Shown: piece by piece, positions 1 through 61,790 of the stretch
Layout of the letters: each line of letters starts with the position of its first letter
How positions within the stretch are numbered: the first letter of the stretch is position 1
From: Amoebophrya sp. A120
Lineage: Eukaryota > Protista > Dinoflagellata
NCBI GenBank assembly: GCA_905178155.1
Contig: CAJINV010000018.1
Coordinates: forward strand, 6,479 to 70,478
Length of the DNA: 64,000 nt
Reading direction: 5' to 3'
Notes under the pieces: model-generated
The model's input: the letters and a program-made list of their open reading frames with translations, nothing else
What the model was told of the DNA's origin: nothing
Databases searched by the model: none
Made by a program: the position numbers and the translations under genes

Positions 1-3000
1 CAACCAAGGCAGAAGACCGAACGCATTCGCGAATGCTTCCGAATGGTCTCGATTTCTTCCTTGCAAGACTGCGAAGGCCAAACCAGAGTCGGGCAGCAGC
101 GTCAGAGTGGGTCTTCGCTGTCCAAAAGCTCAACCCTTCCGCGCTGCTGTCGAATATTCGCGACGCCGGAAAAACTGAGAAACCCCCAGGCGGACAAAGG
201 GCGCCGGGCTTTTTCGTTAAAAGGCTGCTGAAAAAGTGCTAAAATTTTTTTTGCCCCAAAGCAACACGGGGAGCACACGCGACAGCCGGGAAAAGGGGAA
301 GGCGACCGCCTTGCCCCGGGCCCGAAGGCAGGCGAGGCGGAAGAAGGGGGCGACAACAGGCGCCCTCTGAGAAAAACCCCGGCCAAGCCTACTTGCGCGC
401 CGGCCCCCTGGCGGGCCCCGCAAGCGCGCTGGCCGGCGGAAGGGCGACGGCTTGGGGCGGGAGAAAACGAAACATCTCCCCGACGGCGGATGTGCGCGCC
501 ACCCATTCGCGCCCCGAATGACCAGTCAGACTTGAGCAATGGTTCTCCCCATAGAACCTTCCCGAACGCCCGACCCTGCGAACGCCCCCCAAAGCCAATG
601 ACTCCCCCCGTTTCACAAGATGCTGGGGGGGCGGCGGGTCTGCTAAAAAAATGCTAAAAGTCTGCTAATTCAGTGCTAATCCCATTGCTCAATCCCCTGA
701 AACCACATCCCGCCGCGCAAGTTTTGGTCTGCTGCAGTGTGTGCTAAAGTGTCTGCTAAAAAATTGCTAGCTCTGTGCTAAAATGCAAAAACCCACAAAA
801 CGTTCCCGCTTTGGGGGGTCAGGCATTTTAGCATCAGAATTAGCAATGCACTTAGCAGGCGAAATTGCGATTTTAGCAGTGCCCAAAAATGTCCACTCCG
901 GAGTCAACTCCGGCCCAAACTCCGGCCCCTGCCGGAGGACCGGATGCCCTCTCCCAAAACCAGAAAAGAGCCCAACCGAAAATAAAAAAGCAAGACCGCC
1001 TCCCAGCACGAAATCTCCAACCACCGAAGTCGGCCATTGGAGATTTCTTCTCGGAGCTGCGTATCTTGCTACTTTTCTATGGCCCTGCGCAAGTGCCCCT
1101 GGCGGAGGACGAAGGCGTGGCGGGCGCGGCAGGGCCTCCCACCAAGGGCTTTCGCACCCTGGCTATGTTCCCCGCCGCGCCCGCAACTAGAAGCTCAAGA
1201 ATGGGAAACCGCCGAGAGCAGAAAAAGGAACACCGGTCGGGCCCGGGGGGCAGGCCCTAGGAACTTCAGGCGCGTGGCGGAAGCCCTGAAAAGCCTGTGG
1301 GGGGGACAGAGAAAAAGCACGGAACCCGTTGAGGCCGCTAGCAGACCAACACCCGGGGGCCGGTCTTTTGATTTTAGCAATTCTCTAGCCCATTTTAAGC
1401 GGGAAAATCCGGCGGCATGTGTCCGCCTGAAAACCCAAAGCATTCGGAGCGGCCTCCGAATGGTCGCGGTCAACCAAGGCAAAGACCGAACGCATTCGCG
1501 AATGCTTCCGAATGGTCTCGATTTCTTGAAAGACTGCGGAGGCCAAACCAGAGTCGGGCAGCAACGTCAGAGTGGGTCTTCGCTGTCCAAAAGCTCACGA
1601 ATATTCGCGACGCCGGAAAATAAAACCGAGAAACCCAAAGCATTCGGAGCTGCCTCCGAATGGTCGTGGTCAACCAAGGCAGAAGACCGAAAGCGTTCGC
1701 GAATGCTTCCGAATGGTCTCGATTTCTTGAAAGACTGCGGAGGCCAAACCAGAGTCGGGCAGCAGCGTCAGAGTGGGTCTTCGCTGTCCAAAAGCTCAAC
1801 CGTTCCGCGCTGCTGTCGAATATTCGCGATGCCGGAAAAACTGAGAAACCCAAAGCATTCGGAGCTACCTCCGAATGGTCGTGGTCAACCAAGGCAGAAG
1901 ACCGAATGCATTCGCGAATGCTTCCGAATGGTCTCGATTTCTTGAAAGACTGCGGAGGCCAAACCAGAGGCGGGCAGCAGCGTCAGAGTGGGTCTTCGCT
2001 GTCCAAAAGCTCAACCGTTCCGCGCTACTGTCGAATATTCGCGATGCCGGAAAAACTGAGAAACCCAAAGCATTCGGAGCTACCTCCGAATGGTCGTGGT
2101 CAACCAAGGCAGAAGACCGAATGCATTCGCGAATGCTTCCGAATGGTCTCGATTTCTTGAAAGACTGCGGAGGCCAAACCAGAGGCGGGCAGCAGCGTCA
2201 GAGTGGGTCCTCGCTGTCCAAAAGCTCAACCGTTCCGCGCTACTGTCGAATATTCGCGATGCCGGAAAAACTGAGAAACCCAAAGCATTCGGAGCTACCT
2301 CCGAATGGTCGTGGTCAACCAAGGCAGAAGACCGAATGCATTCGCGAATGCTTCCGAATGGTCTCGATTTCTTGAAAGACTGCGGAGGCCAAACCAGAGG
2401 CGGGCAGCAGCGTCAGAGTGGGTCCTCGCTGTCCAAAAGCTCAACCGTTCCGCGCTACTGTCGAATATTCGCGATGCCGGAAAAACTGAGAAACCCAAAG
2501 CATTCGGAGCTACCTCCGAATGGTCGTGGTCAACCAAGGCAGAAGACCGAATGCATTCGCGAATGCTTCCGAATGGTCTCGATTTCTTGAAAGACTGCGG
2601 AGGCCAAACCAGAGGCGGGCAGCAGCGTCAGAGTGGGTCTTCGCTGTCCAAAAGCTCAACCGTTCCGCGCTACTGTCGAATATTCGCGATGCCGGAAAAA
2701 CTGAGAAACCCAAAGCATTCGGAGCTACCTCCGAATGGTCGTGGTCAACCAAGGCAGAAGACCGAATGCATTCGCGAATGCTTCCGAATGGTCTCGATTT
2801 CTTGAAAGACTGCGGAGGCCAAACCAGAGGCGGGCAGCAGCGTCAGAGTGGGTCTTCGCTGTCCAAAAGCTCAACCGTTCCGCGCTACTGTCGAATATTC
2901 GCGATGCCGGAAAAACTGAGAAACCCAAAGCATTCGGAGCTACCTCCGAATGGTCGCGGTCAACCAAGGCAGAAGACCGAACGCATTCGCGAATGCTTCC

Positions 3001-3545
3001 GAATGGTCTCGATTTCTTCCTTGCAAGACTGCGAAGGCCAAACCAGAGTCGGGCAGCAGCGTCAGAGTGGGTCTTCGCTGTCCAAAAGCTCAACCCTTCC
3101 GCGCTGCTGTCGAATATTCGCGAGGCCGGAAAAACTGAGAAACCCAAAGCGTTCGGAGCTACCTCCGAATGGTCGCGGTCAACCAAGGCAGAAGACCGAA
3201 CGCATTCGCGAATGCTTCCGAATGGTCTCGATTTCTTGAAAGACTGCGGAGGCCAAACCAGAGTCGGGCAGCAGCGTCAGAGTGGGTCCGCGCTGTCCAA
3301 AAGCTCAACCTTTCCGCGCGGCTGTCGAATCTTCGCGATGCTGGAAAACCTGAGAAACCCAAAGCAATCGGAGCTGCCTCCGAATGGTCGCTCGCGGCCA
3401 ACCAAGGCAGAAGACCGAATGCATTCGCGAATGCTTCCGAATGGTCTCGGTTTCTTGAAAGACTGCGGAGGCCAAACCAGAGTCGGGCAGCAGCGTCAGA
3501 GTGGGTCCTCGCTGTCCAAACGCTCAGCCTTTCCGCGCGGCTGTA
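1..3545. repeat. Tandem satellite, ~215-bp unit (~10 copies after 1430 plus a partial copy at 1-186; some 219-bp variants)
   Basis: The unit caaccaaggcagaagaccgaatgcattcgcgaatgcttccgaatgg... recurs every 215 bp (ORF-track repeats at 1660, 1875, 2090, 2305, 2520, 2735); copies degenerate near 3300-3545. Confidence 0.97.
187..1429. mobile_element. Non-autonomous hAT-like TIR element inserted in the satellite
   Basis: Ends CAGGCGGACA.../...TGTCCGCCTG with imperfect ~55-bp TIRs. Flanks gaaacccc / aaaaccca match the satellite 8-mer gaaaccca (8-bp TSD, one mismatch each). The satellite resumes in register; no transposase ORF. Confidence 0.8.
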
Positions 3546-27936: not shown

Positions 27937-28813
27937 AGAGGCTGTGCAACAATTGGACCCCCTTTCGCCAAGGCGAAAGGGGGGGGGGTAGGTTGGTCCG
28001 ATTCCGGAGGACGGGAGCGGGCACCCCGACGCAAGGGTGCAAGGTGCTCCCGGCGGTCTCGCCTCACAACAGACTGTCTGTCGAACGCCCGGCGGCTCTT
28101 CTTCGTGTGGCGCCTTCGCAAGGGGCGGCCAGTTGTTGGCTGGTTGGCAGTAGGCGCACAGGCACGCGCACTACGCAACGAGGCCGAAGCCAAACGCCTG
28201 CTATCTATGGGCGCGCTCCGAACCCGGCGCGCCGTAACATGTGAGCGCGCGCAGGACCAGGAGGGCGCGCGCCCACGCTGTTTTTTTTTCGCATTCCGAG
28301 CAGGAAGTCGCATCGGGCCGATTGCAGACGCCCCAGCCATGTGTTGGCCCCGGGCTCCGCGTGCTGCTCGGGGGTGCTTGTGCGTGCGCCCGAAGTTTTT
28401 TTTTGCCCCTTGTTGTGAGGCGCTGGCGGAGGCGGGGAGGGAGGCATGCGCGCGCTGTCAGGGCCGGCGACTACAGATGTAGGCATGTTGCAGTGCGATG
28501 CGAACGTAGCCGCACCGGGCGCGCGCAGCGCGGCCCGCAAAATTTGCTACATTACGCGCGCGCAGGAGCGACACATAAAAGGAACATAGCAGGGGGCGCG
28601 CGCAGCGCGAATTTTTTTTCAATTCCGGCAGCACGAGGACGAGCACAGGACGCAACCCAAGGCCCGCTCGCAGCGGGCACGCGTCCCGCAATTTTTTTTA
28701 CTGCGCACGGCTCCCGGCGAAAGGGGGGGGGGGAGGGGGGAGGTTGGTCTCCAGCGGGCCGCTACCCCCCCTTTCGCCATGGCGAAAGGGGGTCCAATTG
28801 TTGCGCAGCCTCT
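27937..28813. mobile_element. GC-rich MITE, ~55-bp TIRs, 7-bp TSD TACATTT
   Basis: Left end AGAGGCTGTGCAACAATTGGACCCCCTTTCGCC... is mirrored at the right end; tacattt at 27930-36 and 28814-20; absent from the paralog near 21300. Confidence 0.92.
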
Positions 28814-31331: not shown

Positions 31332-34300
31332 TTAAATGTGCCAGATCTTCGTTGGCCCGCTTCGCTTGAGCGCGCCTTTGTCCTGTTGTGTTTCCTGTCC
31401 TTGTTGTGTTCCCTGTTCCTGTTGCTTAGTTCTCTCTTCCTGTTGTGTTCTTTGTCCGTGTTGCAGCGTCGGATCATCGGGGGTCGTTTGTTGTCCCCCC
31501 GTGGTCCTCTGGGTCTTGGTTTGTGTTTGTTCTCCCCCCGTGGCTGGGGCCTCAACTGGAACAGTGGGCGACGTCGTCCCACCAATACATGACGAAGCTT
31601 CTCCTCCCGTTGTTCCACCAGCAGTGCACGTGTGTTGTCCACCGCCGCCTGTTGGCCCGCTTGTAGCTCCACCACCGGAATTACTAGTACCTGCAGCGCC
31701 TGCTTCTGCGCTACCAGTGCCCGTTCCGGCCCCGGGCAGCGCCTGTGTACCAGGCGTCGTCGAAAAAGCCGCGCCAGTTTCTTGCTGGTCAACTTCAGTT
31801 GCCGCACCTGCGGCTGTTCCGGATGAACCGGCTTGGTCCGGTTGGGTAGGAGGTCCTGCTTGTCCCCCGGACGGGGCGGAGTGTGGAATGATAACCGCAG
31901 CTGCTCCTTGTCCTCCCATAGAGGAATGATTAGCACCAACTGCTCCACCTTGTCCTGCCGGAGTGGAATTATCACCGGCATCTTGGGCGGCGAAAGTTCC
32001 CACTTGTAGTCCAGACGATGCGAAGCCTGGGAGTATCGTGAAAGTTCCGCCTGCTCCAGCACTGCCACCACTTATTGTGAGGAATGTTCCCCCCTTCGCA
32101 TATCGAAAACGAGATTTGTGTTGCTGTATTTGAGTACACAACTCGACTTGTATAGCTAGAAGGCCAAGAGATGCAGTTGCTCCCTCATTTGTTGGCAATT
32201 TGTCATGCTGCTTCCCGTTTCCAGTTGCTTCGTATCATTCTGAACACGCAAAGTTTTCCTACACCAGGCAGCACTTACAGTCCACATCTCTTCCCTTCTA
32301 CCATGACAGCGTGACTTGTGATCACAAATAATGCTACACAAGTCCCCCTCTGAGTACGGGGAGGGGGGATTTTTCATTTCGATACCACTTCCGCTGCCTC
32401 TAGAAAAGCCACCTCGAGGACCCGAACTACTAGCACCACCCTGGTGCAGTCCCTCTAATGACTGACTGGCGTCTTCTACCGGAACAGTGCTATGCTCCCC
32501 TGTGCCCCGCACCGCTGCCATCACCGCGCTGCCTGCATCCGCCGCGCTGCCATCCCGCTGCAGCGCGTCGCGGAAGATCAGATCTTGGATCGGCCTGTGC
32601 ACTGCAAATGTGTCCGGTTCTGGAAATTTGTGACGCTCGGCGAAATGCGGATGGCGGAAACACTTCCGAATGCTGCCCAGCATGTCAACTTACCAGAGCG
32701 CTTTCTCTTAGACAGTCCGCATGAGAAGCTGCGTTTTTGCATGACAAAAGAGGAGGCGACTTTTGTTGGTTTGGCAATTCAGATTTCCGACGAATGTCAT
32801 AAAGCTAGCGTTACAAGTTCCAACTTTCCAGATCCAGGCAGTACATGTGTATTGGATAGGACCAGATCTTGGTTGGCCCGCTTCGCTTGAACGCGCCCTC
32901 TCCGCGAATCAGTTTGATTACGTCGTCCACTGATAAGTCGGCAAAGAAGTCCGTCGGGTCGATCAAATGGCTATCTAAATCTTCCAGCTGCCTTCGCAAC
33001 TCCTCGCGCTGCGTGTCCATCGTGACACTTTTGGTGATTCCATTGCTATCTAGGTCGTCGACGTCGGATTGGTGTTGCTGTTCAGCGTCGCAGCCTCCAG
33101 TGGCGGAGAATACATCTTCCTCTCCACCATCTGCAGGAGATTTCCTCGCGCCTATAATTTTCTGCAGCGCGTGCAGCTGCTTCGTGATAACCTGCAGCGC
33201 GTCCACCTGCAGCTGGTCGTGCAGTTGTTGCTTCGTGATAACCGCGCCGAGGGACATCAAATTGTAACTGTGGAAAATCTGCGTGGTTTCATCTTTCATG
33301 TTCTTGCCCCCCGCCGCGAGTTGTTGTTCGTCTTGTTGTTCCCCTATGCCCAGGTTCATCTCGTCTTCCGGACTCACGCTGGCAGCTGGGCTTCCGGTCG
33401 AGTCTGCATCCTGCGGAATTTCATGATGTAGCGGGGCCTGCAGCCCCCGCGAAGCAGATCTACTTCCGGCGAGATGTTGACCAAGAAGCCGCTCATTCTC
33501 CTGCTCCGCCTGCAAAGCGACGTCAATTTGTAATGGTGGAAGGGGGCTGCCGATGCCGTGTTGTTGTAGTGCTGCTGGCTGCAGCTGGTGCTCGTGGGGC
33601 GCAGCCTCATCACGCATTCGCCGCACTACGTCCGGTGTGCGTGAAACTGGTCGCGATGGTATCCTGAGTAAAAACGTACCCACACCAGAGTCAAGATGGG
33701 GACTTTGCAACACAAGCCTAGGAGTTTTGGGAGTCACGCATGACAAGATTCAGTCCGTAAGGTAGTGCAAGTTAGCAAGGAAAGCCACATCACAAATCGA
33801 CCTGCTGATCCTGTTCACAGCATCACAAATTCCAAAACACGATTGGAAGTGGCTCTCATGGGGATGCGCATCACAAATGTCTTTGTCATTGCAAATCTGC
33901 ATTACAACTCTGGGGTGGGTACGTTTTTACTCAGGATAGATGGTGAGCCAGAGCCACTTCCTCCCAAAATGCCGAAGGCGTCCGTTCGAAGTTGCTGAGT
34001 ATGAAATGCAAAAGTATCGTACTCGTAGTAATGGCATTCATGCATTACAAATTTTTTTCTTAAGGCAAATCCGCATGAGAAATTTTATTTCTCATGCTGG
34101 GCTAATTTGCAAATGCATTTATACGAGTACGATACTCTTCCAACGCATACTGTGGGCTGACCTGCAGTTGGTTGGCCCGTCGCTCGGACGGGGAAGGGCC
34201 TCGTCTAGGGGTTCGTGGAGGGGAGACCACTTCGCGCGGCACGGCGGGCCTTTGTAACCGTTGCTCCTCCAAGTGCGGCTGCAGGGACTCGACCCACTCG

Positions 34301-37300
34301 GCGTTTTGCAACGGTGGGGCATCTACAACTGGTTGTACGCCAGAACCACGAGGACCCTCCTGCTGCTGCTCTACAACTCCGTCAACCCGGCCCAGGAGCA
34401 GCTGTTGCTGCTCGTCGCGCTCGTTCCCTTCTTGTTCTTGTGCAGCGCGACTCCGCACTACTTCTTCGATCGACCGGTACCTCAGTCCCTCCCGCTCCGC
34501 GCGGTCAGCAGCTTCAGACAGGGCAGCGCTGGGACGATGCCGTTCGCCCGCACGGTAACTCGGAGGCGGATCATCTTCGCGTGGGGGCGACGGAGGTGTC
34601 CCGGAAGGTAGTACCGCAGGGGATGGGAGCTGAAAGTTGCTGAGGTTGCTGACACTGCCGTGTTCGGAGGTAGTGCCGTCATCTGCCGCTTGGAGTTCAT
34701 CTCCTGCTGGTCGTGCGGGTTGTAGTACAACTTGTGGTCCTCGTGCCATAGGTGGTGGTGCTGGTCCACCCCCAGCGCCTCCCGCTTCAAGCCCGGCGAG
34801 GCACGCTCGCACGTGTTCTGGATTCACGTCCGGCGGTGGAGCTGCACGCCTCACTTGCTCGAGGCCCACAGGGGACAATATCGTCCCGAAATCGTCTGCG
34901 TGCCCCACAACCGAGTTGCCCGCGGAGCCGGTGGCTGACCTGAAACCGCCCTGCTGCTGCTGCGCGTTCAAAACACCACTATCATCGCGCCGGCGGCTTT
35001 CCTGCACCACCTCCTGCATCCGCGCGACCAGTGCCTGGCAGTCTAGTTCCATGGCTTGTTGTCGGTCGTCTGGGTTCCCAAAATGCTCTACGGTTTCCGG
35101 GACAGACAGCTCGTCGTCCTCGCGCTGCCGGAGGTCTTGATCTTGTTGTAGCGGGGGAGATAGTAATGGCGCACCATGTAGTTGGCTGGGGCGATAATTA
35201 TTGATGTCCTCGACTGTTGGCCCGCCTCCAGCAGCTCCGCCGACTGTTGCGACTTCTGAGCGACGTGGACCACCACCTTCAGCAGGGCCAAGCACAGGTG
35301 GTGCCGGTGCCCCCGGCGTGCCTAGAATTTTCTGCAGCACGTGAAGCAGCTGGTCGTGCATCTGTTGCTTCGTGATGACCGCGCCCAGGGACATCAGGTT
35401 GTAACTGTGGAAAATCTGCGCGGGGTAACCCTCGTATAATTTCAGCTTCTCCTTAATCGGCAGCACCAAATCCAGCGGGTGTGATGCGTCAGCTGTGGCG
35501 CCTACTTCTATTTGGGACGACGACGAGGACGACCGACGTATCTCCCGCTGCCTTTGCAGCTCTCGCTTCAGGACCTCGGAAGCTGCCGAGGGCGACAGAC
35601 CACTTACTTCGTGTATAAGGAAGGCCTCCGCCTGACCGGATATCCAGTGCAAAAGTATCGCACTCGTACTCATTGCAGTTATATGCATTTACAAATCTAG
35701 GTGCTACGAGAAATCCACCGCATTACAAATTTTACTCCTCATGCTGAGCAAATTTGTATAAATGCATTATATACGAGTACGATACTTTATTTGCAATGCA
35801 TACGGGAGACGGTCCGCTTATAGAGAACCCAGGGCGACGGAGCCGAAGGAGATGGTGAACTATAAGACGGAAGCTGCGGACCGGAAGCTGCGGACGCAGT
35901 GCCAGCGGTCGCCGGTGGTGCTACCGCTTTGATGGTGGAAATATCAAATGCAAATATGTCTGGAGGTCTGGAAGGATGCAACTTGTGATGCTGTTTTTGG
36001 ATTCTAGGAAAATTTGTATTGCATGACCAGCAAGTGCAAGAGGGGTCCAGTTTGTGCTATAGGGCATTTCTCATGTGGAAGGCGCATCAGGATCAGGAAG
36101 GGTTCTAAAAATCTATGATGGTAGGGCAACATACATCACAGACAATCATGGGTCATGAGAAATATCAATATGCATGACAAGTCTTGCATTCTTCCAGACC
36201 CAGACATATTTGCAGTTGATAGGAAAACGAGGCGACTCGATGCCGCATGGCACCAATCCCGTCGCGGAGGGCGAACCGCAAATTCCCCTCGGGCCGGTCG
36301 GGTTGGATCGTGCTGCCCGCTGAGGTGCCGTCTTCGGCAGGAACAGCCTGCCCAAACGCGCTCAGCTGCGCGCGTCGCAGCTCCTTTATCGAAATTTCCA
36401 AGGCAAACCCGTGCGGCTTGTCGGCTCTTTGCTTCAGTATAGATGAGGAACTAGTAGGGGAGGTACCAATAGGCTTATTGCCAGCGGCTTGTTGTTCGCC
36501 CTCGTTTGCATGTGGATGTTCACAAAAATCTCCAGCAATGTATCCCTTATCCAGTTCTTGCTTCGAATAAATGCTACTTGCACTTCTATGACCAAGAACA
36601 GCAGAAGCACCAGCTGCTCCCGATAGTGCACTGCTGTCTGCACTTCTCCCGCGCCGGAGCGCGGGTCGGTCGGGCGTGGCAAAAGGGTCACGTAGTTGAT
36701 GACTGTGCGGATCATGAGTCGGTGTTGTACCTTGCAGCTCGTTGTGCTTGCCATAGTGGGCTATGCCATCCACTAAAGTAGCCGTTTCTCGAAGTCCACT
36801 TACTGCTACAACTCCGGCGTCGCTCGCACTGCTGGAGAGGCCAGCGGCCGATGCGGCAGAACTAGGAATGTTGAAGAGATTGCGTGGCTGCTCCTGCTGC
36901 TGCGCATAGTCCGGTCGGGGAGGCAGCTGCGGCACAACTAGTCCTGGAGGTTCTGCAGGTTGTAGTTCTTCTCTTGTGGGAAAGGCGAATTGCGTTGGCT
37001 GTTGATGGTGCTGGCCTCGCTTATCAAATGTAAAAGTGTCTGGGTCTGGAAGGATGCGAACTTGTGATGCGTGTTGCGGATCATACAAAAATCTGTGTAG
37101 CGTGACTTGCAAAAGATCCCCATTTCTAGCCATGCCGAGGGGGCATTTCTCATGCAGAATAGGCATCACCAAGGGGCTGCAGAACCTGTGATGCTAGGCC
37201 CTGCATTCGAGACTTGGCTGAGCTTGGAAAAACTGCATGACAAATCTCAGATTCTTCCAGACCCAGACATTTTTGCATTTGATATCGCTGCTGCAATTGC

Positions 37301-47159: not shown

Positions 47160-50042
47160 TCAATGTGCGAGATCTTGGCTGGCCCGCTCCGCTTGAGCAC
47201 GCCTTTGTCCTTGTTGTGTCCCTTGTCCCTGTTGTGTTCCCTGTCCCTGTTGCGTAGTTCCTTGCTCGTGCTGTTTTTCTTGTCCCTGTTGCAGCGTCGG
47301 GTCATCGGGGGTCGTTTGTTGTCCCCCCGTGGTCCTCTGGGTCTTGGTTTGCGTTTGTTCTCCCCCCGTGGCTGGGGCCTCAACTGGAACAGTGGGCGAC
47401 GTCGTCCCACCTGTAGCTGATGAAGGTCCTCCTTCCGTTGCTCCACCAGCAGTGCACGCGTGCTGCCCCCCGCCGCCTGTTGGCCCGATTGTAATTCCAA
47501 CACTGGAACTACTAGCACCTGCAGCACCTGCTGCTGCACTACCAGTGCCCGTTCCGGCCCCAGGCAGCATCTGTGTACAAGGCGTCGTCGAAACAGCCGC
47601 GCCAGTTTTTTGCTGGTCAACTTCGCCTGGTTCTTGTAGCGCAGAGCCAGAAGAAGACCAAGACCCCACGCCGGCGCCAACAGAAGGAGAAGATATTGAC
47701 CTCGTTATTTGTCTCCCAGTTGCCGCACCTGACGCTGTTCTTGATGCGTCGGCTTGGTCCAGTTGGGTAGGAGGCACTGCTTGTCGGGACGGGGCGGGGC
47801 CTAGAACGATAATACCAGCTGATCCTTGTCCTCCCGGAGAGAAATTATCAGCACCAGCTGCTCCACCTTTTCCTGCAGGAGTAGAATTGTCAGCGGCATC
47901 TTGGGCGGCGGTAGTTGCTGCTTGTAGTCCAGACGACGCGGGGCCTGGGGGCGTCGTAGAAGTTCCCCCTGGTCCAGCACTGCCACAACTTCTGCCTCCA
48001 GAAGAACCACCTCGAGGGCCCGAACTACTAGTACCACCCTGGTGCACCCCCTTTATTGACCGACTGGCATCTTCTTCTGGAACGACACCATGTCCCCTCG
48101 TGATCTCCGCGCTGCCTGCATCCGCCGCGCTGCGATCCCGCTGCAGCGCGTCACGGAAGATCAGATCTTGGATCGGCCTATGCACTGCGAATGTGTCCGG
48201 GTCTGGAAATTTGTGACGCTCGGCGAAATGCGGATGGCGGAAACACTTCCGAATGCTGCCCAGCATGTCAACTTACCAGAACGCTTTCTCTTAGACAGTC
48301 CGCATGAGAAACTGCGTTTTTGCATGACAAAAGAGGAGGTGACTCGTGTTGGTTTGGCAATTTAGATTTTTGACGAGTATTCGCCCAAAGGTAGCACTTT
48401 TGCAGTTTCCAACTTTCCAGCTCCAGGCATTACATATGTATTGGATAAGACCAGATCTTGGTCGGCCCGCTTCGCTTGAACGCGCCCGTTCCGCTAATCA
48501 GTCCGATTACATCGTCCGGAGATAAGTCGGCGAAGAAGCTCGTCGGGTCGATCAATAGGCTATCCAAATCTTCCAGCTGCCTTCGCAACCGTTGTGCATG
48601 TGCGCTCCTCGTCACGGGCTTGCCCTCAAACTCTTTCTCCTCGCGCTGCGTAGCCATCGTGGCACTCTTGGTCCTTCCATCGCTTTCTTGATCGTCGAAG
48701 TCGGGTTGGTGTTGCTGTTCAGCGTCGGGACCTCCACTGGCGGAGAAAAAATCTTCCTCTTCACCATCCGCAGGACATGCCGCAGCTTGAGCACCGCCAG
48801 CGGCCGAAGAAGCCACATTCCCCCACAGCAGGTCCTTTTCTCCTTCCAGGAGCTCAATTTGCGGCAACCCTGCAGCAACCGTCTGTGATTCAACCCTTGC
48901 CGGGCTCACAACGGCTGCCGGCACCCTTGCACGATCCAAAGCAGCCGCTCGCCCGTAGTGCTGCTGAAGTCCTGCTGCTGCATCTGTTGCTTTCTCGGCC
49001 GAAGCCGCAGCTCTCCTATGTAAAAACGACCCCGCCCCAACCTCACGATGGGACTTCTTGTACCACACAAATAATTCCGAAGGCTCGAAAGTAAAAAAGT
49101 GACAAATTTTTCCGCCGCAATGTGGTGCAGGTTAGCAAGGACAACCGCTTAACAGGGCAATCTGCGTTTATGGTTTACAGCATCATAAATGCCAGAACAC
49201 GACTACGGAGGCCTCTCAGCATAGAGCTGCAAACCCAAACTGTATTGCAATGCATAAGGAGCTGAAGTCTGAGTGCTGTATTTCAGTGCTGCTGCGTCTC
49301 TCTTTTTGCAAAGAGCAAAAACCAGAACTCAGGCCTCGGCTAGAACTGGTGCGGCACGTGGGTGGGAATGCGCGCGATGCAAGTGCTTCCGTAGCTGTAA
49401 ACGCATACCTGTATGACAAGTCTGGGGCGTGGCGTTTCTACTTAAGATAGCAGCAACTGCTGCTGTACCATTCCCAAGATGAGCCGCGCTTCTTTCCAAC
49501 CCAGAGTCGACGTCTTCTGCATCTACACCTCGTTGCGCCTCGTCCGAGTCCAAATAGCCCTCGGGCTCAGTGGCCCGATCATCGTCAATCCAAGACAGAT
49601 TGGAATCGGTGTCCTCTTTGCCTGCCCGAGCGTTTATATTGTTCTCGAGGAAAACTTTCTGCTGCTCCAGCATGTCGGCGTCGGCGGTTCGAGCGCCAGC
49701 ACCGACCGGCGGTGGGTGGTTCAGCTCGAGCCCTTGTGGGACCACGGAACCGGCTCCGCCCCCCTGTCCTGAAGAGCTGGCGGGCTTCTCCAGATCGAAA
49801 ACTGGGCCTTCATGCGGGCCGCTGGCGGGCTCGACTGGGTGCGGCTTCTCATGAGGAGCCTCCTTGCCGAGCTGCAGTTCTGACGGCGACCCAGAGGCGA
49901 GGGCAAAGGGCTTGGTGACTGCTCGGCCGGTGAAGAAAGAACCACATTCGCCCTCAAAGTAAAGAAACACACTGACAGCGCTCGCCAGATTTGCCAGCAA
50001 CCGGCCGCACCTTGTTTTGCTGCTTTCCCCGATGATCCTCAT
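47160..50042 (-). CDS. Low-complexity protein sharing the N- and C-terminal modules of the giant gene but lacking the RNB region
   Basis: ORFs 49329-50042, 48430-49068 and 47160-48266 join in frame after removing introners 49012-49449 and 48179-48447. Confidence 0.75.
48179..48447. mobile_element. Introner (paralogous to 32596-32858)
   Basis: Same position and near-same sequence as the 32.6k element. Confidence 0.82.
49012..49449. mobile_element. Long introner (related to the 33660 subfamily)
   Basis: Perfect TSD gcagc; IR tctcctatgtaaaaacg..gcccca / tggggcgtggcgtttctacttaagata; in frame. Confidence 0.85.
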
Positions 50043-58800: not shown

Positions 58801-61790
58801 CCCGCCGGCAGCGCCCACCCGCGCGAGGCTGAGAACCCGCGGAAAACTTTGGCCGCTCTCCTGTATCACAATGAAAAACCCCCCCCTCCCCATATCAAAA
58901 CGGAAATCTGTGATGCGGGATTTGTGTACACAAATCACATTTGTCTTGCAGGAAAGCATTGCACACAGATCGCAAGCCCAAGGGGGGCCCTTTTGGTGTA
59001 GGGACCTAGTCGATGGCAGACGTCTGCCCTGTAGGCCTTGCAGCATTACAAACCGCCTGCATGTAATCGCGGCGGACTCTCTGGATTTGCCTTCTGGCAA
59101 GACAGGCCGGATTTGTGGTCACAAATCTGCATCACAAATTTTCAGGGCGACATGTTTTAAATATGGGGAGGGGGGATTTTTCCTTGCAATATCCTGGTTG
59201 TAAGGTTTGTTCGCGTGGTCCTCGCGGGGCATTTCTCGTCGCGAGCGTTTTCCGCCATCATGGGAGGAGAGCAGCACCCCGACTGTTTTTCCAAAATTCG
59301 CAGGATTCTCGGCGGCTCGTGCTGCGAGCACCTCCGGGGCGGTTACGGGGTCAAAAGGAAATTCTGCCTGCGACGCGGCCACGTTGTCCAGGATCTTCCT
59401 CTCCACAAGCTGCTGCTCATGGTCCTGCACGGCTTGTTGTAGTTGCGCCGCCGCTGCTTGTTCCACCATGTGGTCGACTTGGGCCGCGCCGGTGGTGGTA
59501 CTATTATTCTCTTCCCATTCTTGCCTGAACCTGGCAAGTCGCTTGTCCTGGATCAGCTGCTGCTCCCTCTGCTCCTGATATGGATTGCAAAAATGTCTGG
59601 GTCTGGAAGATTAGAACTTGTAATGCTAAATCTGAATGATGCAAAAATCTGTGCTGCGTGAGTGCCAAAAGCTGTCCGCTTCTGACCAAGTTGAGAGGGA
59701 GTTTCTCATGCAGGAGAGGCATGATAGAGACCTCAAAGAATCTGTCATGCTGGGTTTCGCATTCCAGACCTCATGGGTCATGGAAAACCTGCATCACAAA
59801 TCTTGCAATCTTCCAGACCCAGACATTTTTACATTCGATACCTGATCCGGCGTTTTTATCGCGCCCCCGCGGACACTGGTGTTTGGGCTGCTGGTGCGGT
59901 GTGGACGAGCAAACACGTCCGGCTGTAGCTCCCTCTGCAGCGTGTCAAGGGTCCTTCGATTCAACGTCGAGGACTTCTGTGGAGGTCCTAGATCTAGTGC
60001 ATCTGGCACACCAGCTGCTGCAGGAGTTCCGCTCGTAGTTTGCCTGGATCTTGCTTTCGTCCTTGAGGAGGTGGCAGCACCTGCTGTCGCAGGAATTGTT
60101 GTCGCCTGGACCACTCCTCGTTGTTGTTCCTCGAGCTGCGGTGTCGTGGCTAGTGCAACCGTTTATCAAATGCAAAAGTGTCCGGGTCTGGAAGAATGCA
60201 AACTTCTCATGCATATTTTCCATGCCCCATGAGGTTTGGAATGCAGGACCTAGCATGGCAGGTCCTGCGACGTCTCTATTATTCCTATCCTGCATGACAA
60301 CATGCCTCTAAACTTGTTCAAAAGTGGACAGCTTTTGGTAGTCATGCAACACAAATTTTTGTACAATCCAGACTTAGCATGACAAGTTCGCGTCCTCCCA
60401 GACCCAGACATATTTCTTCCCGGCTTACAACCCGATTATTCTCCTCGTCGAGGGCCTGCGCTTCTTGCTCCGGTCTGCGGTTGACAACGACCGAAAACAC
60501 ATCATCGACCGAAAGCGATGTTACTGACGTCGTCTGCAACAAAGTGTCCGGGTCCGCGTAACACAGGCTCAGCAGTGTGGTATCCCTCAAGAGTGGGCCC
60601 GCGCGTGTGTTTACCGGAGAAAAAAACGTTGGAGGTAAATGAAATCGGACATCAATCCGGCGATGTGAAGATGTAACCGGAGAAAAAAACGGAGGTGGAA
60701 CGTCAGAGGATGGATCCGGAAAATGTGGAACGTTGGAGGTAAAAATGAAACGCCAATCTTCCAGCGATGAGTCTAGAAAACCTTGGACGCCCGCATCGCC
60801 AACCAGCCTGAGGTTTAGCATGTCCGAGAACGAAATATTCACTGACACTATAGGGGCACCATCATGATTATCTGCTCTCCCCATATTTGTTCGAACGAAG
60901 TTTGCCGTCTCGGGGGAAGGCAAGTCGTGGAGCACCCGCCACTTTCCGTCAGCATCGTGCCGCCAAGAGGCAGCCGACGGGAATTTTCTTCCAAGACGAC
61001 TTATCCAATTCCGATCGTCTTTCCAATATAATGTAGCTCCATTATCCGTCATACGATGAAATGCGGGCCACCATTTATATCCATTACGCCTGAGCATGCG
61101 GGCAACAGCCAGGACGACAGGCCAGTGTCTCAGGCTCTGCTCGATCTGTTCCGGCCACGTCATGGACTGGGGATCCAGAATGGAAGGTTGTTCCTGCGGT
61201 CTAGCTAGCTTAAACTGAACTTCGCACCAACTTGCTCTCGTGCTCCGGTTCTCGCGAGAGGCCTCGACGCCATGCGATCTGGCTGCGCACCAAACGGCTA
61301 GGTGGATAAGGAGGACGCGCTGCCACCAGTGTGACGCGTTTCGCACCAGCCATCTTCTCCCCGACCATGTCATTTTTCGCGACCTGAAGAACCCAATGGG
61401 CACGCGGAGACCACGAGCGGATATCGGATTGATGTTTGAAGCCATCCTAGAACCACTTATCGGGGTATGCATTGCAAATGGGTCGGGGTCTGGAAGACTT
61501 CTATATTTGTCTTTGTCACGCGCGTCGGACATGACTCGGGATACCCACGAAAAGGTCCTCTGGCCTGTGATGCAACGACGCAGTTTGCCATGCGAATAAT
61601 GCGCAACACATAGCAGCCCGACAATTTGCCACGCTTACTTAGCTGTGTATTGCAATACTTCATTCTTACCGTTCCCTTTCAGCATGACAACCTTCCAGAC
61701 CCAGACACATTTGCTGTCGATATTGGCTGGCGGATCCAGATGGTGCTCCACTGGCACCGTCTTCGCCTGCTACTTGTCTTCGCCTTTCTT
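55899..61790 (-). CDS. Chimeric multi-exon protein ending in DUF4116-like repeats
   Basis: C-terminal repeats ALEHASEACRD, LEFASPRLRDDENLV, LEFASERLRGNRDV, MRFASSELQRDREL. Frame restored across introners at 56309, 56734, 57060, 58864, 59579 and 60164. The junction near 58.1-58.3k and the 5' end are uncertain. Confidence 0.6.
56309..56442. mobile_element. Minimal introner (134 bp) inside a DUF4116-like repeat
   Basis: IR tatcgaatgcaaaag / cttttgcatatcata; TSD tgcaa/tgtaa; removal gives LVAIAVT-AVPAMLEFASE. Confidence 0.88.
56734..57008. mobile_element. Introner
   Basis: IR with GTCTGGGTCTGGAA; TSD diverged (cgatt/aggtc); removal +5 nt gives FETVWDL-IRKSPSALEHASE. Confidence 0.82.
57060..57293. 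mobile_element. Introner
   Basis: IR tatgcgttgcaaagatgtc / gacatatttcctatggata; TSD cagtt/caagt; in frame. Confidence 0.82.
58122..58284. mobile_element. Probable degenerate introner (AT-rich, 26-bp internal IR)
   Basis: tagtactacacccattagttgtaccag vs ctggtacaattatgggtgttgtacta; right end tgcatcggata; left end unclear. Confidence 0.55.
58864..59191. mobile_element. Introner (poly-C TIR subfamily)
   Basis: Perfect TSD tcctg; ~31-bp IR with aaaaaycccccctccccatat; in frame. Confidence 0.92.
59579..59840. mobile_element. Introner
   Basis: Perfect TSD cctga; empty site in the duplicate at 43486-43490; in frame. Confidence 0.95.
60164..60421. mobile_element. Introner (duplicate of 44066-44330)
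   Basis: Near-identical sequence; TSD ccgtt/ggctt; in frame. Confidence 0.8.
61466..61722. mobile_element. Introner
   Basis: IR tatgcattgcaaatgggtcggggtctggaag / cttccagacccagacacatttgctgtcgata; TSD poorly conserved. Confidence 0.8.

Follow-up and report, generated by a model that had tools for sequence, protein, structure and literature searches.

The class of introns considered here is already known from the dinoflagellate Amoebophrya sp. A120, in which it was described in 2021 (Farhat et al., 2021; PMC7789003). According to the parts of that paper drawn on here, A120 has 66,565 RNA-supported introns, of which 65% are non-canonical, and its introners carry inverted repeats with the motif TAT-N7-AAA together with direct repeats of 3–5 nt. 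Hairpin-guided splicing was proposed in the Fig. 4 legend and the discussion, and the same parts report that no transposase was found in A120. A later survey lists 58 A120 families (Gozashti et al., 2025; PMC12130899); mostly TIR DNA elements appear among the 22 of its 58 rows covered here, and family 38 carries an integrase-like ORF. We analyzed a 64,000-nt stretch of DNA, called the window below, and all positions refer to it. The window belongs to Amoebophrya sp. A120, and two proteins that NCBI names as A120 (P0003 and P0004) match it at 100%. An ORF of the window used as a protein query gave 3 proteins, of which two bear the name A120, and the match of P0003 extends over 463 aa. The element studied, at 33660–33938, shares with the A120 introners, as far as the two papers were covered, the organism, the TAT-N7-AAA inverted repeat, the 3–5-nt direct repeat, the predicted hairpin, a length near the 240-nt mean, membership in a repeated family, the lack of an internal transposase and the non-GT-AG ends. 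It may be a member of fam124 of the survey (278–279 bp, with a 30-bp TIR), judging from the rows covered. Nothing differs in kind; the intron border is unknown or variable in the 2021 text, whereas a single register is proposed here for 12 introners. A fixed register or a later mechanistic study was not found in the freely accessible literature covered, which took in text passages of PMC7789003 and 22 of the 58 rows of PMC12130899.

Three other systems resemble this element, each described here from part of its source. The nonconventional introns of euglenids (PMC11282704) also have paired terminal repeats, a fixed cut offset and TSD-like repeats, and a MITE origin has been proposed for them. 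They belong to another lineage, and their pairing starts from +4 with −6, whereas +2 is predicted to pair with −5 in the A120 element; circular excised RNA is reported there. In Fritillaria borealis (bioRxiv 10.1101/2025.08.15.670264), transposon-derived introns likewise escape GT-AG genome-wide, a parallel that would extend to the U2 spliceosome. That system follows an AG-AN rule with an altered U2AF and snRNA modification, whereas +1 and the acceptor are free in A120. The introner-like elements of Polarella and Symbiodinium (bioRxiv 10.1101/2020.10.14.339549) are dinoflagellate elements with a TIR and a TSD, some of which form introns whichever way round they lie, but in these the TSD or the element itself supplies a donor beginning with G and an AG acceptor, and the A120 element uses neither.

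The 279-nt body of the element (33660–33938) has TAT...ATA ends and is bracketed by two 5-bp copies of GATGG, read as CCATC on the coding minus strand, at 33655–33659 and 33939–33943, which form a putative target-site duplication. The near-perfect 32-bp inverted repeat that the earlier note had seen was confirmed: the left arm (33660–33691, with a TAT-N7-AAA start) and the right arm (33907–33938) are each 32 nt long and 97% complementary, and they are predicted to form a terminal stem. In the predicted fold of the element RNA the two arms pair, and its energy of −114.8 kcal/mol (z = −7.67) was equaled by none of 100 shuffles. A coding role was not found for the body. At the gathering thresholds of Rfam there were 0 matches in the window, and the element showed no resemblance to a group I, group II or other structured intron of that database. 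Eight elements of the window end in TAT, have an exact repeat of 5 bp and match at 13 or more of 20 inverted-repeat positions, whereas each of 30 shuffles contained 0; demanding a repeat of 3, 4, 6 or 7 bp instead of 5 bp gave 1, 0, 0 and 0 elements. TAT-ended elements with an exact 5-bp repeat are therefore far above chance. The motif TAT-N7-AAA was found at 24 of 28 element ends in the window, which had been picked for TAT and not for AAA, including both ends of the element at 33660–33938.

The earlier note had listed six equivalent ways of removing the element with one repeat, with the termini CC-TA, CA-AC, AT-CC, TC-CA, CT-AT and TA-TC. All six were reproduced exactly and none is canonical, but the count was one short: a T follows both repeat copies, so the boundary can slide by 6 nt, which gives seven registers, and the seventh, AC-AT, is likewise non-canonical. 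The element therefore has neither the GT/GC-AG termini of a U2-type intron nor the AT-AC register of a U12-type intron, and minor snRNAs are reported absent in the parts of PMC7789003 covered here. The TTTCC element (35942), for which the same had been said, also has six registers that are all non-canonical. The broader statement that no canonical splice boundary is possible holds inside the repeat and not beyond it, since 12 GT/GC-AG pairs that preserve the frame are located no more than 40 nt from the ends. Among these, the GT-AG pair from 33930 to 33647 on the minus strand, lies 9 nt away, keeps the frame and is also 284 nt long.

A protein search with a 776-aa exon returned a single protein, P0004, named Amoebophrya sp. 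A120; a search with a 495-aa exon gave no match, the host protein being longer than the proteins covered by that search. P0004 is a low-complexity protein of 3410 aa whose entire sequence is accounted for by 15 exons on the minus strand, between 45067 and 31335. Its gene contains 14 introns, of which 12 are TAT-type introners and two are ordinary GT-AG introns without a terminal repeat (40044–40271 and 40813–41227). The intron that holds the element lies between an upstream exon of 56 nt (33940–33995) and a downstream exon at 32860–33655, both supported by the contig joint described below and by P0004. Five further introners are supported by both a contig and P0004: 32069–32385 (317 nt), 35938–36222 (285 nt; the TTTCC element), 37018–37285 (268 nt), 38161–38313 (153 nt) and 35637–35803 (167 nt, imperfect repeat). 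The same support exists for 32592–32859 (268 nt), an old copy with an imperfect repeat, and contig support exists for 33996–34150 (155 nt, imperfect repeat). The remaining four were placed by the protein: 39636–39893 (258 nt, imperfect repeat), 43518–43774 (257 nt), the degenerate 44062–44337 (276 nt) and 44566–44737 (172 nt, imperfect repeat). All of these introns are on the minus strand. Pfam returned no family for P0003 or P0004. The surrounding region (4800–61600) consists of tandem families of low-complexity minus-strand genes, and Pfam gave none in the 30 ORFs scanned.

Of the 11 listed runs, four (X3 and X9–X11) were aligned to the window. To locate the removal, we compared the contigs of run X3 with the annotated protein. 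One X3 contig joins 33654 to 33939 and skips 284 nt, that is, the body plus one repeat; X3 consists of contigs whose RNA nature is presumed, and this joint occurs on one contig with a short side of 56 nt. The annotated protein P0004 needs the identical 284-nt removal, and the element is already missing from the public gene model. These two lines are probably not fully independent, because the P0004 annotation probably rests on RNA data from the same strain. X3 had 28 joints, 15 of which were listed; eight of the 15 fall at element boundaries, and joining them gives a frame of 2134 aa, compared with 528 aa when unspliced. The other seven listed joints either jump inside a repeat copy or from one copy to another, or have a short side, and were not used. 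X3 has a depth of 0–0.2 outside the gene on its 5′ side, and the depth increases to about 200 toward the 3′ end, as expected of a transcript; a contig piece also ends at the canonical intron boundary 41227. The raw RNA runs X9–X11 had zero depth on the exons and hence are uninformative on the junction. Thus, the element is absent, with non-GT-AG ends, from both the presumed RNA contig and the annotated protein, and precise removal at the RNA level is very probable. Among the raw reads of RNA run X11, about 370 cross from a foreign flank into the terminal repeat (33660–33702) and continue into sequence like that of a 280-nt subfamily; these reads represent a copy retained in abundant RNA, probably that of another strain.

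The earlier note had named two competing outcomes, the use of nearby GT-AG sites and retention of the element in mRNA. Neither was found: the X3 joint lies at 33654/33939 in agreement with P0004, and the element is absent from both. As for the GT-AG pair from 33930 to 33647, it exists and preserves the frame, but splicing there would alter three residues, and P0004 shows the residues of precise removal while the contig joint lies at 33654/33939. This form is missing from both sources and was excluded as the main form, although minor use would escape notice in contigs; it is extremely improbable that the pair is the real intron.

A further suggestion of the earlier note was that such elements are excised from DNA, as ciliate IESs are. 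The IESs of Paramecium are transposon-derived, TA-bounded sequences inside coding exons that are precisely removed. The A120 element shares with them the transposon derivation, the TA at its ends, the interruption of a coding exon and the precise removal, but it has a variable 5-bp repeat, stays in DNA assemblies and is joined in transcript-like data. The TA direct-repeat bounding of ciliate IESs is also missing here, since a variable 5-mer is retained and both TA ends are removed. Programmed excision in some life stage would account for the TA ends, the transposon anatomy and the precise loss of one repeat, and none of the 11 runs, each of which contains at most 0.79 of the words, is labeled as DNA. 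Evidence against it is the presence of the elements in two DNA assemblies, one represented by the window and the other by 71 loci, 53 of which have both ends, and the X3 data, in which the joined form occurs, the depth follows the gene (from 0–0.2 to about 200) and the contig piece stops at the canonical boundary 41227. Further evidence against it is given by the 66,565 RNA-seq-supported introns of A120, 65% of them non-canonical, which stand against a DNA assembly (PMC7789003, in the parts covered). DNA elimination in Amoebophrya was not mentioned among the literature matches listed, and we regard this explanation as very improbable.

The junction evidence is all cDNA-type or cDNA-derived. 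A hairpin flanked by direct repeats is the classic setting for a template-switch artefact, in which reverse transcriptase would jump across the hairpin, the intron would be false and the mRNA would keep the element. Three observations argue against this. The 284 nt contain in-frame stops, and the long frame appears only when all elements are removed; introns with repeats matching at just 1–3 nt are removed equally precisely; and at the DNA level, deletion of the body plus 5 nt restores coding at 20 of 44 family loci, compared with 2–5 of 44 for other lengths. We therefore consider template switching to be highly unlikely.

The position of the cut was expressed as k, the number of repeat bases left on the 5′ exon; perfect repeats hide the cut, whereas imperfect repeats bound k. 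For the element at 33660–33938 by itself, the seven registers are indistinguishable. The contig joints bound k to 3–4 at 32592–32859, 2–5 at 33996–34150 and 4–6 at 35637–35803, and P0004 bounds it, at the protein level, to ≤ 4 at 39636–39893 and 44566–44737 and to at least 3 at 44062–44337. The value k = 4 is the sole register allowed by all 12 introners of the P0004 gene, with the lower bound of 4 coming from one intron only, 35637–35803. Because only k = 4 fits all 12, the introns would read N-TAT...ATA-NNNN. The intron that holds the element would then be 33656–33939 with CT-AT ends, its length of 284 nt being observed and its register being taken from the other introns. We infer from these small numbers, assuming uniform behavior of introners, that they share the single register N|TAT...ATA-NNNN|. 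The Fig. 3 legend of PMC7789003, a source covered in part, speaks against a uniform register, giving the border as unknown or variable.

At k = 4, the first intron base of the 12 introners is G in five, C in four, A in two and T in one, and the T at +2 is kept in all 12. The last two intron bases take seven forms, and AG is never among them. In the intron 32592–32859, the repeat offers a GT-AG register at k = 1, which is bypassed; together with the pair 33930/33647, this suggests, from two introns, that same-length GT-AG pairs are bypassed. In the predicted fold, +2 pairs with −5 in nine of the 12 introners, and the ends are left unpaired in the other three, which are removed nevertheless. When the direct repeats of 24 loci were read in the direction of transcription, neither a clear G at +1 (9/24) nor an AG preference nor any other clear positional bias emerged, so that their composition is neutral on the register. 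In Table S4 of PMC7789003, the nine commonest non-canonical motifs of A120 have T at +2 in 9/9 and A at −2 in 8/9, as far as that source was covered. These motifs were rejected as proof of the register, since a mirror-image register (A at −2) and aligner bias also fit. Two introns deduced from P0003 (11508–11729 and 13119–13373) share the layout N-TAC...ATA-NNNN, and one has TT-AG and the other GT-AG ends; they may be old introners whose ends are becoming canonical.

We also analyzed the family to which the element belongs. A 24-nt arm pattern retrieved 71 loci, all in one other DNA assembly, and both ends were present at 53 of them; the full-length copies at these loci are 71–97% identical to the element. 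After removal of five loci with repeated flanks, 48 remained, and their direct repeats were exact 5-bp repeats at 42 loci, had one mismatch at four and three mismatches at one, and measured 8 bp at one (the copy at L007:601–880). Among the 46 repeats with no or one mismatch, 44 distinct 5-mers occur, which indicates a repeated family at unrelated sites. When the body was removed together with 5 nt, coding continuity was regained at 20 of the 44 loci with enough flank, whereas the body plus 3, 4, 6 or 7 nt gave this result at 5, 2, 4 and 2 (pooled Fisher p = 1.7e-8). In tandem paralogs, the sites of the elements at 43522 (paralog near 59870) and 59579 are empty and have just one copy of the repeat, and a diverged empty site exists for the element at 32073 (paralog near 47990). 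The element at 33660–33938 has no empty site of its own among the 71 family loci, from all of which its flanks are absent. With terminal inverted repeats, a target-site duplication of fixed length and no coding capacity, and with empty sites for three neighboring elements, the family has the features of a MITE. Of the 44 loci, 24 had a confident strand call, and the orientation was that of the window in 12 and the opposite in 12 (8:8 at a stricter cut). The calls come from a codon model without RNA for the loci, and each subfamily leans 9:3. This suggests, on small numbers, that family copies occupy coding DNA in both orientations.

Several family observations concern single sites. The loci L019 and L027 have near-identical flanks and the same site and repeat but hold two clearly distinct copies of the family, which resemble the window element at 88% and 74%; on sequence comparison this would be an independent re-insertion or the replacement of one introner by another. 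The introner at 32596–32858 is also found in a paralog at 48179–48447, with a GT-AG register inside the repeat in both; its presence in both paralogs makes it older than the duplication. Two tandem paralogs show reciprocal presence and absence of introners at 43486–43522 and 59579–59877, with an offset of 31 nt between the sites. The segments 43711–44339 and 59777–60430 are 92% alike, above their surroundings, hinting at gene conversion. A degenerate relative of 438 nt at 49012–49449 has an exact 5-bp repeat and perhaps holds a nested insertion.

The earlier note had proposed that the ends are defined by the hairpin or a bound protein. The boundary does appear to be set by the terminal inverted repeat; the ends are non-canonical, the removal is precise and nearby GT-AG pairs are bypassed. 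On balance, we favor a relaxed U2-type spliceosome that measures both cuts from the predicted terminal stem of a MITE-like introner, a reading that we consider somewhat probable as a full mechanism. The element would have been inserted through a TIR-transposase-type reaction that duplicated 5 bp. In the pre-mRNA, the two arms would pair and draw the exons together; the 5′ cut would leave a single intron base ahead of TAT, and the 3′ cut would leave four behind ATA. One repeat would thus be rebuilt, four bases from one copy and one from the other. The spliceosome contacts the U at +2 and the A at +3 of an intron. In the proposed mechanism, N-T-A-T would replace the G-T-A of a normal donor, leaving +1 and the entire acceptor dinucleotide free. 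Because the arms read alike on both strands, copies would be removable whichever way round they were inserted, and this would account for the spread of the family across coding exons.

Part of the support comes from PMC7789003, in the parts covered: all but six of 89 splicing proteins were found in A120, U2, U4, U5 and U6 were found, and the repeat layout is common to 15% of the canonical A120 introns. Fritillaria, from the partly covered preprint (bioRxiv 10.1101/2025.08.15.670264), offers an earlier case of a spliceosome that accepts relaxed termini. RNA editing of the boundaries was set aside on the 2–4% figure of PMC7789003, as given in the parts covered.

The main rival to the relaxed spliceosome is a structure-specific endonuclease that would cut 1 nt upstream and 4 nt downstream of the stem, followed by an RtcB-type ligase, without any spliceosome. 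Such a pathway fits the termini, which are free at +1, −1 and −2, the occurrence of both orientations and the disregard of the GT-AG alternatives. It also fits two reports in partly covered sources, namely that U1 snRNA was undetected in A120 (PMC7789003) and that the hairpin introns of euglenids exit as circles and not as lariats (PMC11282704). However, the T at +2 in all 12 introners is donor-like, as is the TT-NN that prevails in strain A25, and A120 has a near-complete spliceosome and canonical introns of like layout (both from the parts of PMC7789003 covered). Moreover, three of the 12 introners are removed despite a weak predicted stem. We consider this rival rather unlikely, and it is a shade less likely that such a stem-measuring nuclease (1 nt before, 4 nt after) and a ligase form a spliceosome-independent pathway for most Amoebophrya introns. 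If they did, the nuclease would be blind to base and orientation, transposon insertions would be self-erasing in RNA, and a new general mRNA splicing chemistry would exist in the eukaryotic nucleus.

Another explanation is that TAT-N7-AAA and TTT-N7-ATA are read linearly by the spliceosome or by a dedicated protein, the hairpin being a by-product of the transposon. The motif is kept across families with differing inner arms (24 of 28 ends), and old copies with only 8–14 of 20 arm matches are still removed, both of which agree with linear reading. On the other hand, the arms within a single element are 18–20/20 alike in five of the 12 introners, more than the motif needs, for which recent insertion alone would suffice. 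We judge linear reading to be quite improbable.

Relative to the class described in 2021, the register, the two orientations and the bypass of GT-AG pairs would be small additions, suggested by small numbers of introns and loci. They sharpen the question of the route by which about 40,000 non-canonical A120 introns are removed. A fixed cut, 1 nt upstream and 4 nt downstream of the stem, would, together with the indifference to orientation and the bypass of same-length GT-AG pairs, replace "no splice signature" with the rule N|TAT...ATA-NNNN|. This rule would improve annotation and points to the sites where junctions of lariats or circles would be expected. A machinery other than the spliceosome would amount to a new way of splicing mRNA in the nucleus.

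Three other repeats of the window were recorded. A tandem array at 1490–3500 consists of units of about 215 bp with palindromic motifs, and ahead of it, at 186–1430, lies an inverted-repeat element with a 6-bp repeat. At 27937–28813, an 877-bp element of a different type has inverted repeats of 49 nt that are 96% alike.
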